A DNA stretch of 15,441 bases from a virus. The notes below the pieces were generated by a model. The model made no database searches. It was not told the origin of the DNA and saw only the letters and a program-made list of their open reading frames with translations. The stretch is from UHGV virus genome UHGV-0099063. One strand, 5' to 3'. Below, piece by piece: positions 1 through 5,925 of this stretch. Position numbers and translations under genes: made by a program. Positions within the stretch are counted from its first letter, which is position 1. Each line of letters opens with the position of its first letter.

Positions 1-160
1 ATACAGTCCATACACCAACAATATCTTTGTATGGTATGTAGCTGACACCTTCCAGGCCATCGTTACCACTTGGTCCAGTGATTAACACAGATGCTATAGC
101 AATAGCCCCGCCACTTATCGCCGCTATTACGCTATTTCGTAGTGCCGGTGACATTGCCAT
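1..160 (-). CDS. SAR endolysin (lysozyme, RrrD/R21-like), partial; C-terminus lies beyond the window start
   Basis: Minus-strand translation from ATG at 160-158 reads [53 protein letters not shown], matching the N-terminal signal-anchor-release region of lambdoid SAR lysozymes as recalled from E. coli RrrD. Overlaps the 3' end of the holin gene, as is usual in lysis cassettes. Confidence 0.85.
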
Positions 161-335
161 TCAATCTGTCCTCGCGCTCTTTGCGCTTGTAGTACCAGTT
201 GATGCCAAATGTGCCGACAGTACAAAGAATACCAATGATGACAGCCCAGTCATTCAGGGAGAGAATGCCACCCATCGCAGTCAGTCCTCCGAAGCTGTAA
301 CTGAACCATTCTCTGATTTTGTCCATACGGTACAT
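132..335 (-). CDS. class II holin (pinholin, S21-like) with dual-start motif
   Basis: 67 aa ORF with two predicted TM segments (Gly-rich [17 protein letters not shown], then [20 protein letters not shown]) and a charged C-terminus. N-terminus M-Y-R-M has two in-frame ATGs (335-333 and 326-324) separated by a basic residue, like the holin/antiholin dual start of lambda S and phage 21 S. Sits immediately upstream of the SAR endolysin. Confidence 0.8.
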
Positions 336-740
336 GCTCTACCCCTTCATTGAGGGGATTTGCTCTATTTAATTAGGAATAAGGTCGATTACTGATAGAA
401 CAAATCCAGGCTACTGTGTTTAGTAATCAGATTTGTTCGTGACCGATATGCACGGGCAAAACGGCAGGAGGTTGTTAGCGCAACCTCTTGCCACCCGCTT
501 TCACGAAGGTCATGTGTAGAAGGCCGCAGCGTAACTATCACTGATGAATTCAGGATAGCCAGTGGCTACGGCTCAGTTTGGGTTGTGCTGTTGCTGGGCG
601 GCGATGACGCCTGTACGCATTTGGTGATCCGGTTCTGCTTCCGGTATTCGCTTAATTCAGCACAACGGAAAGAGCACTGGCTAACCAGGCGCGCCGACTC
701 TTCACGATTATCGACTCAATGCTCTTACCTGTTGTGCAAA

Positions 741-782
741 TAAAAAAAGCCACCGTTGCAACTTAAGAGTCACTAACGGCAG
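741..782 (-). terminator. rho-independent terminator downstream of HNH endonuclease 1
   Basis: On the minus strand, hairpin GCUGCCGUU...AACGGUGGC (9 bp stem with two G-U pairs) followed by a run of seven U (plus 741-747 is AAAAAAA). Confidence 0.5.
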
Positions 783-791
783 CTTACATCT

Positions 792-1304
792 TTAAACGGT
801 ATGATATTTCATTCTGGCTGCCTCAAAAGCCGCAGCGGCAAGTTCGGCAGTGTCATGGTATCCAAGGTTAATACACTTTCCAGACGCATTAATTCTTGCT
901 CTCCATTTCCCGTACTTAGCATCCCAAGACACGCCACGGTATCCAGATTTATTATTCTTCTGAATTTTCCTGTTTTGCATATTTTCGGAATGAGTGACAA
1001 GACGAAGATTTGATATCCGGTTATCTGTTCTTACCCTGTTGATGTGATCAATAAAACCATCGGGCATGGTGCCATAAACAATCAACCATGCCAGTCTGTG
1101 AGCAGGGCATGCTTTACCATTAATCATAATCATTAAATACCCATCAGAATTTATTGATGAGCATTTCTTGAAAGCAAAACGAGAGTTCCATGTCAAAGTG
1201 GTCCTCTCTCTCCCCTGCCTCCATCTCCAGTGAAAGTCGCCTGATGATGGATTGTAATCAACAACAGAAAGCACCATTTCTGGCGTTAATTTTATTTCTT
1301 TCAT
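792..1304 (-). CDS. HNH endonuclease (HNH_3 motif plus AP2-type DNA-binding domain), homing-endonuclease-like
   Basis: 170 aa ORF with FIDHINRVRTDNRISNLRLVTHSEN (HNH_3-type catalytic motif) followed by GYRGVSWDAKYGKWRARI...LGYHDTAELAAAAFEAAR (AP2-like). Start 1304-1302 with AAGG 8 nt upstream. Lies between the candidate tR' and the lysis genes. Confidence 0.85.
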   Translation of the reverse strand: MKEIKLTPEMVLSVVDYNPSSGDFHWRWRQGRERTTLTWNSRFAFKKCSSINSDGYLMIMINGKACPAHRLAWLIVYGTMPDGFIDHINRVRTDNRISNLRLVTHSENMQNRKIQKNNKSGYRGVSWDAKYGKWRARINASGKCINLGYHDTAELAAAAFEAARMKYHTV

Positions 1305-1424
1305 CGCTTTACCTTAGGGATAGAGCCTGTTCGCGTAGATATGACAGCCAAGAGCGGAGCGATGTTTCCACCACCATATCTCAGGCCCATATCACTAAGA
1401 CTCTTGTTTTGATTGCACGCGAAT

Positions 1425-1449
1425 GCAAAAAAGCCCACAGGAGGTGGGC
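1425..1449 (-). terminator. rho-independent terminator just downstream of Q (candidate tR')
   Basis: Stem GCCCAC/GTGGGC (plus 1433-1438 and 1444-1449) with 5-nt loop; on the minus strand it is followed by UUUUUU (plus 1427-1432 is AAAAAA). Confidence 0.6.
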
Positions 1450-1491
1450 TTGTGATGGTTGCTGAATGCAAAAGCAGCAGCATATGTGAAT

Positions 1492-1522
1492 ATTATGGCT
1501 AAATGGCTAATTGCATGTCAAG
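1492..1522 (-). promoter_or_regulatory. candidate late promoter pR' overlapping the 3' end of Q
   Basis: Minus strand reads TTGACA (plus 1517-1522), 18-bp spacer, CATAAT (plus 1492-1497). Position directly after Q and about 40-60 nt upstream of the terminator matches the conserved Q-pR'-tR' arrangement of lambdoid phages. Confidence 0.4.
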
Positions 1523-2017
1523 ACTTTTAACAGCAACATGCTTAACTTTCTCAACACGTTTACGCATTTTGAAAGCATTTTGCATTGGTTGGTACAAAAC
1601 AAATAATGACGCTTTCAGGATATCGTCAATTTCGTTTCTACAGGTTGCCAGTGAAGGTTTTCTCCATCCCTCGCCACCACGCCCACACATCTTGCGTGGC
1701 TTTGCAGTCGCGTGATAGTAGGATGCAATTGCTCGCTTAGATGAACCATGAGCGTAGTAGCTGAGGAGGATGCCAAAGGCTTTCTTGTCAATGTACATGA
1801 CGGAATCGACGACCTGAGAAATCAACATTCCATCATCATCATTACACATTGGCCTTGTCATAACTCTTCCCAGCTCTACGCTCTCCATGAACTTCGCTAT
1901 TACGCTGCTCATGCGCTTTTCCAGGCGACCTGAATAAACCCATGCGCCCCACAGTTCAAGCCAGCCATTCAGCCAATCGTGCTGTTCTTTGGTGAGGTTT
2001 AGCTCTCTTATGCTCAT
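1499..2017 (-). CDS. Q: late-gene antiterminator Q (Phage_antitermQ family, QuuD-like motif)
   Basis: 172 aa ORF containing LELWGAW, recalled as a Q-family motif; last gene of the coupled nin operon (start overlaps ninH stop) and immediately upstream of the candidate pR'/tR'. Confidence 0.75.
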   Translation of the reverse strand: MSIRELNLTKEQHDWLNGWLELWGAWVYSGRLEKRMSSVIAKFMESVELGRVMTRPMCNDDDGMLISQVVDSVMYIDKKAFGILLSYYAHGSSKRAIASYYHATAKPRKMCGRGGEGWRKPSLATCRNEIDDILKASLFVLYQPMQNAFKMRKRVEKVKHVAVKSLDMQLAI

Positions 2018-2202
2018 CGTCTTCCCTTTTTGCCTGGCGTGACCATCAGGACGCCGTTAACTATTACGTGACGCTCGCCTTTGCTGTCTCGGTTGTACTT
2101 GAGCACTGTTCCTCTTGCGCAGGAAAGCATCCTCGCCACTTCGGTCTGATTGCCTCGTGTCTGGATAAGAAGCTCTGGTATCGTTTGAATTGTGGCGTTC
2201 AT
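2014..2202 (-). CDS. ninH: NinH
   Basis: 62 aa ORF MNATIQTIPELLIQTRGNQTEVARMLSCARGTVLKYNRD..., closely resembling lambda NinH as recalled (TIPDML...GNQTEVARRL.CSRGTVRKY). Start overlaps rusA stop. Confidence 0.8.
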   Translation of the reverse strand: MNATIQTIPELLIQTRGNQTEVARMLSCARGTVLKYNRDSKGERHVIVNGVLMVTPGKKGRR

Positions 2203-3582: not shown

Positions 3583-3759
3583 TCATTTCCTCGCACGATG
3601 TCTTAGCCACCGGATATCCCACAGGTGAGCCGTGTAATTGAAGGTTTTTACGTCAGATTCTTTTGGGATTGGCTTGCGTTTATTTCTGGAGCGTTTCGTT
3701 GGAAGGTATTTGCAGTTTTCGCAGATGATGTCGGTGATACTTCGTCGCTGTCGTCTCAT
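3583..3759 (-). CDS. ninE: NinE
   Basis: From ATG 3759-3757: [58 protein letters not shown], matching lambda/DLP12 NinE as recalled. Its ATG overlaps the TGA of the upstream HNH ORF. Confidence 0.85.
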
Positions 3760-4358
3760 GCCGCCCTGTCTCCCCATCTTGCTTTCATTGTTTCATTTGC
3801 AAATCGCCAGAATCTTCCTTTGTGATATGAGCTTTCGCCATTACAGCAACGACTAATTGACGAACTATCAAATCCTTCTCTGACAGCATCCATAGCTGCT
3901 TCATAATAAACCTCCTCCCCAGTTTTCATGTCAGTAGAAATAACAGCTTTACTGGCAGGATGATCACCACTAAATTTACCTAGCGATATAGGTATTCTTC
4001 CATTTTGTTTATATCCGTGCTTTGAGTTTTCAGAATGTGATACCCATTCAAGGTTTTCAGCCCTATTGTCATCTCTTTGCCCATTTTTGTGATTAACTAC
4101 CAAGCCATCACAGAACCCTGTACAGAATGCTTTCGCAACTATCCTGTGGGCGCTGTATTTCTTACCGTATACCTTTATTTGAAGATATCCTGTCGACTTG
4201 CACTTGAATGGTTTTACGCTAGTGCCATTAATTATTTTCTTATATGGCCTCTGTCTGGTTGATGTTACTGTAATTTCCCTCGTAATAGACCTGAAATTTC
4301 CTTTATTGCTAACCTGATAAAATGGAATTCCTTCGATATCTACCCAAACCTCAATCAT
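3756..4358 (-). CDS. HNH endonuclease (NUMOD4-like N-terminus plus HNH_3 motif), inserted into the 3' end of ninB
   Basis: 200 aa; N-terminal [20 protein letters not shown] (NUMOD4-like), then [25 protein letters not shown] (HNH_3). GGAGG lies 4 nt upstream of the ATG, inside the last ninB codons. The last nine residues, KARWGDRAA, match the recalled C-terminus of lambda NinB. Confidence 0.8.
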
Positions 4359-5313: not shown

Positions 5314-5925
5314 TTATCTTTTTTTAACACGCTTTCGAGTCCTTTTAGATTTTTCCTTAAGATATTCCGCAAGTTTATCCTCATCATTATTAAATTGAGA
5401 TAAAAGCTCATGCTCGCAATTAAGTGCTTTACTCGCATAAGTTCCATATAGTTTCTTTCTTGCTAGTGCTGCTATGAATGCTGCATCTTCTTTGCTATCG
5501 AAATACCCTAACGATATTGTCTTATTTTTATAACCAACATAAGACTTCCACCTGCCAGTTGTCTTATCCCAAGACACTCCAATCGCACCGGATGTGTTTA
5601 ACCTATTCCCTACAATGTTTCTTGCATTCTGCTCCTCTGTTGCCAGTCTTAGATTTGAAATCCTATTGTCAAGTCTGTTCCCATTTACATGATCAATAAA
5701 CTTAGGAGGCCATTTTTTGTATACATAGAACCAAGCAAGTCTATGCGCATAATACAAAACATTATTTATGCTAATGCATATATAACCACCACTAACACCT
5801 CCAGCAATACTACCTTTTACTCTTACTACTGAATTTGTTTTTAGCCATTTAAATATTCCTGTTTCTGAGTCATATGATAATGTTGACAGAAGCTCATCGT
5901 GATCAATTAGTTTTTTTATTCGCAT
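5314..5925 (-). CDS. HNH endonuclease (HNH_3 plus AP2-type domain), paralogue of the 792-1304 gene
   Basis: 203 aa; AHRLAWFYVYKKWPPKFIDHVNGNRLDNRISNLRLATEEQN (HNH_3) and GVSWDKTTGRWKSYV...LGYFDSKEDAAFIAALAR (AP2-like); collinear with HNH 1. Strongly AT-rich; no clear Shine-Dalgarno before its ATG. Confidence 0.8.
   Translation of the reverse strand: MRIKKLIDHDELLSTLSYDSETGIFKWLKTNSVVRVKGSIAGGVSGGYICISINNVLYYAHRLAWFYVYKKWPPKFIDHVNGNRLDNRISNLRLATEEQNARNIVGNRLNTSGAIGVSWDKTTGRWKSYVGYKNKTISLGYFDSKEDAAFIAALARKKLYGTYASKALNCEHELLSQFNNDEDKLAEYLKEKSKRTRKRVKKR

Follow-up and report, generated by a model that had tools for sequence, protein, structure and literature searches.

A close described relative of the locus studied here is the late region of phage 21 (OL657228; Q21 structures 6P18 and 6JNX). 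The two share the Q family, a −10-like pause element at equal distance and then an intrinsic terminator. For Q21, a Q binding element (QBE) of two 8-bp direct repeats has been described (10.1101/651190), and in phage L the pair AATTATCC/ATTTAGCC, near-identical to the one found here, has been proposed as the QBE (PMC8022706).

Between tR′ and the holin gene lies a slot for late-operon morons such as the tRNA-Asn and tRNA-Thr of phage 21, Sf6, L and SPN9CC, with a content that varies among similar phages. In Stx phages the late-operon cargo between tR′ and the lysis genes comprises stx genes and tRNAs. Free-standing phage HNH homing endonucleases with HNH_3 and AP2 domains (PHROG 99) resemble the endonuclease gene of our locus in domains, intergenic location and presence or absence at one site.

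Two further phages match large parts of the locus. HK629 (JQ182735) is 99% identical to it from position 1560, at the end of Q, via the late promoter pR′, a first terminator (t1), the HNH gene and a second terminator (t2) to position 716, and the HNH gene is annotated there, whereas its leader middle and its holin (lambda S type) differ. Lambda has a leader of ~400 nt between tR′ and S (44771-45185) that is alike from the terminator T-run to the hairpin before the holin start.

The window is the whole stretch of 15,441 nucleotides analysed here, from the virus genome UHGV-0099063, and the genes in its positions 1-2100 lie on the minus strand throughout. The interval between Q and the holin gene probably belongs to a lambdoid prophage whose Q is of the phage 21 type, and comprises its late regulatory region and leader. 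This layout has been seen before: a Q21-type control region, an HNH gene at the site (HK629) and the lambda leader are in public records, so the finding as submitted adds little. An earlier note on this DNA had described six features, namely pR′, tR′, the HNH gene, a second terminator, a non-coding stretch and a hairpin, and all of them are present on the minus strand where it had placed them. The genes and control elements are as follows.

1499..2017, minus strand: late antiterminator Q of the phage 21 type, 172 aa (Pfam PF06530, E 6.3e-25)
1492..1521, minus strand: late promoter pR′, with −35 TTGACA at 1521..1516, −10 CATAAT at 1497..1492 and a spacer of 18
1478..1485, minus strand: predicted start of late transcription (A at 1485) and the sigma-dependent pause element (SDPE) TATGCTG at 1484..1478, both positioned in register with the start site and SDPE annotated for phage 21
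1425..1451, minus strand: terminator t1, with stem AAGCCCAC-CTCCT-GTGGGCTT at 1451..1431, then TTTTTG (terminator scan)
792..1304, minus strand: HNH homing-type endonuclease gene, 170 aa (HNH_3, E 3.8e-18; AP2, E 1.6e-08)
742..786, minus strand: a TAAGCTG at 786..780 that copies the pause element of phage 21, and terminator t2, a phage 21-type tR′, identical to the annotated SDPE and terminator of OL657228
342..357, minus strand: hairpin CCCCT-CAATGA-AGGGG just 5′ of the holin start (scan and lambda comparison)
132..335, minus strand: holin gene of the HP1 family, 67 aa, with a possible dual start MYRMDK (Pfam PF16080, E 4.4e-21; PHROG 20, holin)

Q matches the solved Q21 structures 6jnx and 6p18 with an E of 6e-90 across residues 1-162. 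Downstream of it, TTGACA-18-CATAAT agrees with the promoter consensus at 11/12 positions and is the sole strong promoter-like site on the minus strand within 1-2200 in the promoter scan. This promoter is common to 59 phage records and is annotated as pR′ in HK75 and Sf6. It overlaps the 3′ end of Q and t1 comes shortly after, which bears out the reading that pR′ and tR′ adjoin Q. Its spacer contains a tandem 8-bp direct repeat, AATTAGCC/ATTTAGCC at ~1513..1497, a candidate QBE whose position agrees with that of the annotated phage 21 QBE. The repeats are of the phage L, Sf6 and HK75 type, whereas phage 21 has ATTGAGCA/AATGAGCA.

The TATGCT motif lies 7 nt past the −10 element and is in register with the phage 21 TAAGCT (ATTCACA-TATGCTG in the window versus ATTCGCA-TAAGCTG in phage 21, the start site standing at the hyphen). 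It is identical in the Hafnia phage yong1, where the first 31 nt 3′ of the −10 hexamer are the same and the QBE differs. The start site, the pausing and the read-through by Q are predicted by homology with these systems. The t1 terminator also stands 3′ of the promoter in HK629 and in PhiR12_1 to _5, and in yong1 it is followed by a holin gene ~110 nt on, with no HNH gene. An RNA ended at t1 is predicted to be ~60 nt long, and t1 is probably the functional tR′ of the present arrangement. A 60-aa ORF at 1483..1301, with its first base at +3 of the predicted RNA and an ATGA overlap with the HNH start, is probably due to chance, because in yong1 it stops after 9 codons.

Late transcription would then run as follows. 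RNA polymerase would start at pR′ at ~1485 and pause at the −10-like TATGCT, and Q bound on the two 8-bp spacer repeats would load onto the paused polymerase. Modified by Q, the polymerase would cross t1, the HNH gene, t2 and the 400-nt leader and go on to transcribe the holin and lysis genes. In the absence of Q, it would stop at t1 and leave the ~60-nt RNA. The holin ATG at 335 is ~1150 nt downstream of the predicted start, in keeping with the earlier estimate of about 1.1 kb.

The second terminator, earlier placed at 741-782, is a long hairpin with a T7 run at ~784..742. It is annotated as tR′ in HK75, Sf6 and Nil2. The simple terminator scan did not list it. The phage 21 pause element and terminator are thus kept identically in the window, but a 705-bp stretch with another pause element, t1 and the HNH gene parts them from the promoter. 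Also in contrast to phage 21, the window is without tRNA-Asn and tRNA-Thr and has a lambda-type leader instead.

The reading of this interval as a late-operon cargo slot agrees with what the relatives contain, as other phages carry the same promoter and phage 21-type terminator with different contents behind them. Phage 21, Sf6 and SPN9CC have tRNA-Asn and tRNA-Thr there, HK75 has a tRNA-like sequence, several prophage contigs from IMG/VR have a hammerhead-like motif and the window has the lambda-type leader. Hammerhead models gave one sub-threshold match of interest on the related loci, and tmRNA and YrlA models gave noise matches only. The window differs from the late-operon morons in two respects. 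Its HNH gene lies upstream, not downstream, of the ancestral terminator, and its variable RNA cargo is neither a tRNA nor a protein-coding gene.

The HNH gene, rightly recognized as such in the earlier note, encodes a product that matches PHROG 99 (HNH endonuclease) with an E of 1.8e-72. The cassette around it spans ~1491..788 and stands in place of 6 nt (TAGAAG) of the empty site, which in HK75 or Sf6 reads CATAATTAGAAGGTAAGCTGCC. The cassette is present in HK629, in the PhiR12 phages and in 39/5426 complete E. coli genomes, counted as those with at least 80% of a query from the Q end to the leader and hence with the cassette at the same site. It is absent, next to the same promoter, from HK75, CUS-3, Sf6 and SPN9CC and also from most of the 863 matching E. 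coli genomes. On these comparisons the HNH gene is a presence/absence cassette in otherwise homologous genomes, and it is probably a mobile homing-type endonuclease cassette. It departs from a clean insertion in that 6 nt are replaced, and its homing is putative. Two further HNH genes lie elsewhere in the window.

By its position, the cassette separates the −10 element of the promoter from the ancestral pause element and terminator. Control by Q would nevertheless be preserved, because the cassette brings a pause element and t1 upstream of the HNH gene. The gene would be expressed only late.

The stretch downstream of t2 had been taken for roughly 440 bp of unexplained non-coding sequence, and this description no longer holds. 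Its origin is the lambda late leader, as 751..353 is 96.6-97.3% identical to lambda 44771-45170. In the window this leader follows the phage 21-type terminator rather than lambda tR′ and precedes an HP1-family holin rather than S. Its last hairpin also differs, with CCCCT/AGGGG around a 6-nt loop in the place of the CCCC-TTATT-GGGG hairpin upstream of lambda S, the ‘sdi’ structure. In P22-like phages the start-site stem is kept with a different sequence (CCTCAC-GGTC-GTGAGG).

The 3′ part of the leader is kept across Q types and holin types, with ~75% identity in P22-like phages, and from this part through the holin gene and the sequence beyond (578..3) the window is 96% identical to SPN9CC. 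In the aligned relatives, only the middle part (~716..587) is variable cargo. That the 3′ part is nearly identical among lambda-like phages could be due to recent recombination and not to function. In a GTDB genome scan for the core leader, 18/27 matches were identical to lambda, mostly in non-enteric genomes, and were taken as lambda DNA contamination. The informative matches are few, in Escherichia sp., Erwinia dacicola and Pluralibacter.

As the earlier note had it, 353-790 holds no ORF of 60 aa or more and no recognizable tRNA; the longest ORFs are of 50 and 52 aa. Covariance scans name no family here either. ARAGORN and the Rfam tRNA model gave no tRNA or tmRNA in the non-coding stretch. 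For the Rfam families, 1-2600 had no match at E≤1, and with the limit raised to E≤10 the matches in 330-800 were noise. The lambda locus likewise gave nothing at E≤0.5.

The 461-nt leader RNA is predicted to fold far more stably than its shuffled versions (−164.5 versus −127.6 ± 6.3 kcal/mol, z = −5.9), and 0/100 shuffles were as stable. By its predicted fold and the variation among relatives, the leader consists of conserved RNA helices that follow one another and bear compensatory changes. Its parts are listed below.

661..736, minus strand: leader helix S1, with arms CACAACAGGTAAGAGCATT (736..718) and AGTGCTCTTTCCGTTGTG (678..661); inverted repeat I5
577..671, minus strand: closing stem GTTGTGCTG/CAGCACAAC around a 65-nt element; inverted repeat I2, fold z = −3.5
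436..507, minus strand: rod-like structure H1-H2-H3 (RNAalifold consensus); inverted repeat I3
356..438, minus strand: three-part repeat A/B/C; inverted repeats I1 and I7

S1 encloses an insert of 39 nt at 717..679, GAGTCGATAATCGTGAAGAGTCGGCGCGCCTGGTTAGCC. Across 27 arm variants, 95.7% of the cells pair and 12/18 pairs have changes on both sides, which 0/500 shuffles equal. Many of its G-U pairs would be A-C mismatches on the opposite strand, and therefore the sense strand is the folded one. Elsewhere, depending on the phage, the S1 stem encloses any of ~16 unrelated inserts, 10-170 nt long, among them T-arm-like hairpins, a hammerhead-like core and the 65-nt element. The ends of S1 (CACAAC...GTTGTG, with a variable centre) are reminiscent of integron attC sites, whose end consensus is RYYYAAC/GTTRRRY. 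The S1 ends are off this consensus and there is no sign of an integron, and this reading was set aside.

The 65-nt element lies at 657..593 (AATTAAGCGAATACCGG...CGCCGCCCAGC). Phage D6 has it with 98% identity and rV5-like phages with 83%, each time just 3′ of a tRNA-Ser gene, and it occurs also in the Salmonella phage ST1UNAM. Its closing stem differs in sequence from context to context and is always complementary in those compared phages. A recombinant type (contigs L070 and L079) has no closing stem around the element.

In the rod, H1 is TTCGTGA/TCACGAA, H2 is GCGGGT/GCCCGT and H3 is the hairpin singled out in the earlier note (466-487), at 492..463 with the loop CGCTAA. That hairpin is real and forms the tip of a 12-nt inverted repeat (463-474/481-492, 92% complementary). 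Among 71 unique variants, which also underlie the A/B/C counts, H1 pairs in 70-71, H2 has C-G to U-A double changes and H3 has U-A to C-G double changes, with the fifth, central pair of H3 standard in only 20/71. The hairpin at 463-492 was considered as an intrinsic terminator and rejected, as the sequence behind its stem is GUUUUG (4 U), the scan passed it over and P22-like versions have UGAUCUG instead. A 12-aa upstream ORF (ATG ACC TTC GTG ... CGC TAA) with its stop in the same hairpin loop was also set aside; it is without a ribosome-binding site, its start is not conserved and the Erwinia and Pluralibacter versions no longer have its stop.

Segment B, GGATTTGTTC (within 407..395), has two possible partners, A, GAACAAATC (438..430), and C, GAGCAAATCC (within 368..356). 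The B:C pairing has 10/10 positions paired in 71/71 variants, while A:B loses 3 pairs in a diverged clade, and B itself is unchanged even in the prophages of Erwinia and Pluralibacter. There is hardly any variation in H1, in B and in most of 466..389, so that their pairing is compatible with the structure rather than proven by covariation.

The earlier suggestion of a regulatory RNA is plausible, because the leader helices covary, and it stands as a putative function. In the records and the accessible literature we found no function for the ~400-nt leader helices and inserts, and in the open-access literature no mention of the sequences of S1, its inserts and the 65-nt element. An RNase III site requires ~20 bp or more of near-continuous double-stranded RNA. 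By prediction and covariation, S1 has 18 bp and the rod (507..436) ~25 bp with internal loops. The sites at which RNase III processes the late RNA of lambda are the subject of Daniels et al. 1988 (reference 49 of PMC7547250). We tentatively propose that the leader serves late mRNA processing or stabilization, possibly by RNase III, and that the partner taken by B, A or C, would act on the hairpin at the start site and, through it, on holin translation.

A more elaborate form of this proposal is possible but somewhat doubtful. The late leader would be an array of stem-bracketed RNA cassettes, with the stems as processing signals, perhaps for RNase III, that release small RNAs from the Q-dependent transcript, and with the A/B/C switch tuning translation at the holin start. 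The 65-nt element does occur in other complementary stems within tRNA clusters, in the P1-like D6, in rV5-like myoviruses and in a Salmonella siphovirus.

It is rather unlikely that the non-coding stretch is a decayed cargo array, in which lambda and the window would both retain non-functional debris of ancestral tRNA genes and spacers. The same flanks, t2 upstream and AACTGAGCCGTAGCC downstream, do enclose the tRNA-Asn and tRNA-Thr of phage 21, Sf6 and SPN9CC, and the 65-nt element stands next to tRNA-Ser genes as given above. The HK75 leader middle scores 29.3 bits against the Rfam tRNA model (gathering score 29), with acceptor, D and T arms and with 74 nt in place of the anticodon arm. Its acceptor stem is homologous to the closing stem of the window, TGTGCTG/CAGCACA, which lies at the same position.

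Debris should decay, however, yet S1 and the closing stems stay paired via compensatory changes, unrelated groups of phages share the 65-nt element at 83-98% identity and the 3′ 240 nt are conserved irrespective of the Q and holin beside them. The window is also without any remaining tRNA signal by ARAGORN and Rfam, and decay could cover at most ~716..587. Hence the degraded moron of the earlier note fails for the stretch as a whole, in view of its conserved helices with compensatory changes, and could hold at most for the variable cargo of ~716..587.

That the conserved 3′ leader is a DNA-level recombination linker without RNA function, its similarity coming from module exchange, is unlikely. 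Such a role would fit the CUS-3 record, where the ‘boundary sequence’ bsq3 is annotated over exactly the 3′ ~240 nt of the leader and bsq4 over pR′-tR′. It would also fit the mosaic junctions at the 3′ leader edges, with Q types varying upstream and holins downstream, and the near invariance among lambda-like phages. But in the P22-like, Erwinia and Pluralibacter versions (~75% identity) compensatory or wobble changes maintain H2, H3, B:C and the start-site hairpin, and the G-U pairs indicate a constraint on one strand only. Moreover, a recombination role and an RNA role can coexist.

It is very improbable that the terminator after Q ends an early operon and that the true late promoter lies downstream of t1 or just upstream of the holin gene, with the HNH gene or the leader outside Q control. 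In the HK629 record the terminator after Q is not named tR′, and a ‘putative late promoter pR′’ is set 30 nt 5′ of the HNH gene. The hexamer annotated there, TCTACG, is unlike a promoter element, which suggests that the pR′ annotation in that record is misplaced. The scan of the minus strand gave no promoter-like site between 1492 and 336, and thus none just upstream of the holin gene. The upstream promoter, by contrast, has a Q21-type repeat and a pause element in the phage 21 register, and the HK75 and Sf6 annotations put pR′ at the Q end. An RNA 5′ end after the tRNAs in BTP1 could stem from tRNA processing.

Least credible of all is that the 3′ leader encodes a small protein from a 50-aa ORF with a GTG start (541..389), which matches PHROG 22751 (unknown function; E 2.6e-29), is called as ‘hypothetical protein’ by gene callers in several phage records and has 7/12 variable sites, defined by at least 3 unique variants differing from the majority, on third codon positions. 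PHROG 22751 is not independent evidence, because it was built from called ORFs in this conserved DNA stretch. The ORF is without an ATG start and without a Pfam match, and its 3′ 78 nt (466..389) have only rare variants, each in 1-2/62 unique sequences, with no third-position concentration. It is rejected because a TGG to TGA change at 491 makes an in-frame stop in 5 unique variants, HK629 among them, and because the lambda-like and P22-like versions are out of frame with each other through an insertion and a deletion of 1 nt each, the P22-like ORF ending early. No conserved protein-coding gene appears in 353-790 among the compared relatives.

In sum, three points are of some value, one of them the probable misplacement of pR′ in the HK629 record. 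The HNH cassette with its own pause element and terminator would be a selfish gene that enters the most tightly gated spot of the phage and leaves Q control intact. In the leader, ~400 nt of lambda itself are made up of RNA helices that covary and inserts that can be exchanged. If the leader acts in RNA processing or lysis timing, this would be directly testable in lambda, the best-studied phage.

All genes in window 1-2100 lie on the minus strand, and the late region reads as follows.

Features of the late region in order of transcription
2017..1499, minus strand: Q gene, the first in order
1521..1492, minus strand: promoter-like site TTGACA-18-CATAAT, matching the consensus at 11 of 12 positions
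1451..1431, minus strand: terminator hairpin t1, with a T-run after the stem
1304..792, minus strand: HNH_3 + AP2 gene, by domain matches
about 784..742, minus strand: second long hairpin t2, with a T7 run
between t2 and the holin gene, minus strand: non-coding stretch of about 400 nt, longest ORF 52 aa
657..593, minus strand: 65-nt element, found also at L007 1501-1565 (phage D6) and at two other compared loci, L005 601-685 and L162 701-767
507..436, minus strand: rod of helices H1, H2 and H3, with pair counts over 71 unique variants
start at 335, minus strand: holin gene, HP1 family, by family match

The promoter scan yields 1521..1492 as the only strong promoter-like site on the minus strand. 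What the earlier note had observed here is all confirmed, namely the gene order, the promoter, the two terminators, the HNH gene, the non-coding stretch and its hairpin, the last being the tip of a 12-nt inverted repeat (463-474/481-492). The absence of a recognisable tRNA from the stretch also holds, as ARAGORN finds none in the window and an Rfam search of it gives no match at E ≤ 1 and only noise at E ≤ 10.

On nucleotide comparison, the 440 bp that had been called unexplained turn out to be lambda's own leader. Window 751..353 aligns with lambda 44771-45170 at 97.3% identity (96.6% for 748..340 by blastn), and the matched lambda stretch is the leader from the tR′ T-run to the hairpin before S. 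Phage HK629 has the same arrangement at 99% identity, so, judged by such comparisons, the arrangement is already known.

The leader is a mosaic. Its 5′ part, with the helix S1, is common to the window, lambda, HK75, CUS-3 and HK629, its middle (716..587) is lambda-specific among these compared phages, and its 3′ 240 nt, annotated as 'boundary sequence bsq3' in CUS-3, are common to all of them. P22, ES18 and relatives have a core of about 115 nt of the 3′ part (window about 508..394) at about 75% identity. The space between t2 and the shared 3′ part holds tRNA-Asn and tRNA-Thr in phage 21, Sf6 and SPN9CC. Thus, the earlier interpretation of a cargo slot stands, while that of a degraded moron falls for most of the non-coding stretch. 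Of the 27 GTDB genome hits to the core leader (L015-L041), 18 have the phage lambda sequence unchanged. Most of these come from non-enteric genomes (Pseudomonas, Shewanella, Bradyrhizobium and Paenibacillus among them), and many sit on low-coverage contigs about 48 kb long; they look like lambda DNA contamination of the assemblies.

The candidate for a conserved protein gene within 353-790, the case that the earlier note had set against its own reading, is ORF 541..389, which matches PHROG 22751 and fails the coding tests. TGG changes to TGA at window 491 in 5 of the 62 unique lambda-like variants, HK629 included, the P22-like versions break the reading frame, and the 3′ 78 nt hold only rare variants, in one or two sequences each, with no concentration at third codon positions. 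We therefore reject this ORF as a gene, and the same observations argue that the constraint on the 3′ leader acts at the nucleotide level.

The Q protein matches the solved Q of phage 21 with E 6e-90. The pR′ spacer contains the repeat pair AATTAGCC/ATTTAGCC; the Q binding element (QBE) of Q21 is two direct repeats of 8 bp (10.1101/651190), and the QBE proposed for phage L, AATTATCC/ATTTAGCC, is nearly identical to the window's repeats (PMC8022706). The phage 21 annotation (OL657228) gives, in order, −35, QBE, −10, start site, pause element TAAGCTG (+2..+8) and terminator. The window shares this register, having ATTCACA followed by TATGCTG where phage 21 has ATTCGCA followed by TAAGCTG, from which homology predicts a transcription start at 1485, followed by a pause element at 1484..1478.

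Among the 59 phage records sharing pR′, the similarity to the window ends directly after CATAAT in 50, where TAGAAGGTAAGCTG and then a phage 21-type terminator follow. The t1 version is carried by HK629, five PhiR12 phages and Hafnia phage yong1 (78.6% identity). The yong1 repeat is phage 21-like (ATTGAACA/AATGAGCA) and its first 31 nt 3′ of the −10 hexamer are identical to the window's; t1 is present but the HNH gene is absent, and the holin comes about 110 nt further on. This occurrence of the pause element and t1 without the HNH gene rules out t1 as a chance hairpin and argues that the two together are a natural alternative module. An ORF of 60 codons (1301-1483, minus strand) opens with the pause element's ATG, +3 in the predicted late RNA, spans t1 and finally overlaps the beginning of the HNH gene at an ATGA. 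It is probably chance, because it has no family match and its yong1 counterpart stops after 9 codons.

As to the second terminator, TAAGCTGCCGTTAGTGACTCTTAAGTTGCAACGGTGGCTTTTTTTATTTG at 786..737 is identical to the annotated pause element and terminator of phage 21, and the same sequence carries the tR′ annotation in HK75, Sf6 and Nil2. It represents the ancestral tR′, which has been displaced to the 3′ side of the HNH cassette. The HK629 record (JQ182735, 42635-42750; L001 1552-1667) puts a 'putative late promoter pR′' downstream of the post-Q terminator; contrary to it, pR′ falls at the Q 3′ end on comparison with HK75, Sf6 and phage 21.

The empty site in HK75, CUS-3 and Sf6 reads CATAAT, TAGAAG and GTAAGCTG in succession, and in the window TAGAAG is replaced by 705 bp that extend from ATTCACATATGCTG to the HNH gene end. 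At least 80% of a query spanning the cassette interval is found in 39 of 5426 complete E. coli genomes and some part of it in 863. One genome, TB4019, has the cassette and then tRNA-Asn, therefore the cassette can precede either leader type. Similarity of the PhiR12 phages to the window stops 68 nt into the HNH gene. The promoter scan finds no promoter-like site between t1 and this gene, and the hexamer annotated as 'putative pR′' in HK629 is TCTACG, so the gene is most likely expressed only by Q-modified read-through. Two further HNH genes lie in the nin/replication region (3756-4358 and 5314-5925, both minus strand), one with NUMOD4 and HNH_3 and the other with HNH_3 and AP2, the product of the latter being 40% identical to the cassette's HNH protein (792-1304); homing-type endonuclease genes thus number three within 6 kb.

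Folding of the 461-nt leader RNA gives z = −5.9. In S1 (736..718 with 678..661), 95.7% of the cells pair across 27 arm variants, both sides change in 12 of 18 pairs, none of 500 shuffles reaches these values and slid controls pair at 36–61%, with the arms gathered by a fuzzy search for a near-palindromic consensus, a procedure biased towards pairing. Despite this bias, the double changes from GAGC/GCTC to GGGT/ACCC, ATAG/CTAT and GAGAAC/GTTCTC are real, and the frequency of G-U pairs indicates that the sense strand is the folded one.

In the rod, H1 hardly varies and pairs in 70–71 of 71 variants, and both H2 and H3 have double changes when the lambda-like clade is compared with the P22-like one. 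In H3 the fifth pair is hypervariable, being standard in only 20 of the 71. Its window positions 488 and 467 (minus strand, hairpin 492..463) vary more than any other site in the 3′ leader, with G, A or T at 488 and C or A at 467 in seven combinations; the neighbouring 5′-arm sites 483 and 482 also vary, and the hairpin's 3′ arm and downstream sequence are almost invariant. As the leader's obvious long helices, S1 and the rod would be the candidates for any processing by RNase III.

Segment B (GGATTTGTTC) is invariant across all versions. In all 71 variants, 10 of 10 positions pair between B and C (GAGCAAATCC); the alternative partner of B is A (GAACAAATC), which repeats C directly. The hairpin ahead of the holin start has a 5′ arm that overlaps C, and the P22-like phages keep this hairpin with a different sequence. 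These features tentatively suggest that the partner choice of B may affect the start-site hairpin and hence holin translation. Lambda's equivalent hairpin has a role in the choice between two S start codons. The HP1-family holin (132-357, minus strand, with the hairpin) begins MYRMDK, two Met codons with Tyr-Arg between them, and its hairpin includes the likely ribosome-binding site, resembling the annotated dual-start holin/antiholin of lambda S, phage 21 S and Sf6 genes 60/61.

The 65-nt element has no Rfam family match. Phage D6 has it at 98% identity and rV5-like phages (myoviruses) at 83%, directly downstream of a tRNA-Ser gene in both, and it lies between tail genes in Salmonella siphovirus ST1UNAM, likewise within the range of 83–98%; in D6 and ST1UNAM it is inside S1 itself. 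Its closing stem differs by context, being GUUGUGCUG/CAGCACAAC in the window, a 15-bp stem in D6, UGUUGACC/GGUCAACA in an rV5-like phage and TGTGGTG/CACCACA in other contigs, and one recombinant type has none. Directly downstream of it in D6 (1586-1706) is an Rfam match to STnc100, a gammaproteobacterial sRNA, whose 39.6 bits fall short of the gathering score, 47.

In the HK75 late leader (L003 1625-1751), the stem found in the place of the 65-nt element's closing stem encloses a tRNA-like sequence. Its Rfam tRNA score is 29.3 bits (gathering score 29); the acceptor, D and T arms are present, 74 nt replace the anticodon arm, and ARAGORN makes no tRNA call there. Among IMG/VR prophage contigs, S1 surrounds about 16 different inserts. 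One of 167–168 nt, in at least six contigs (L112 1867-1913; L143, L136, L074, L118 and L125), has a complete hammerhead core, CUGACGAG...CGAAAC...GUC, scoring 24.7 bits (E 0.0012) for RF00163 (Hammerhead_1), below the gathering score of 34. An open-access literature search gave no mention of the 65-nt element, the S1 inserts or the hammerhead insert. The verdict on the finding is independent of the 65-nt element and the S1 inserts, which underlie a possible reading of the leader as stem-bracketed RNA cassettes.
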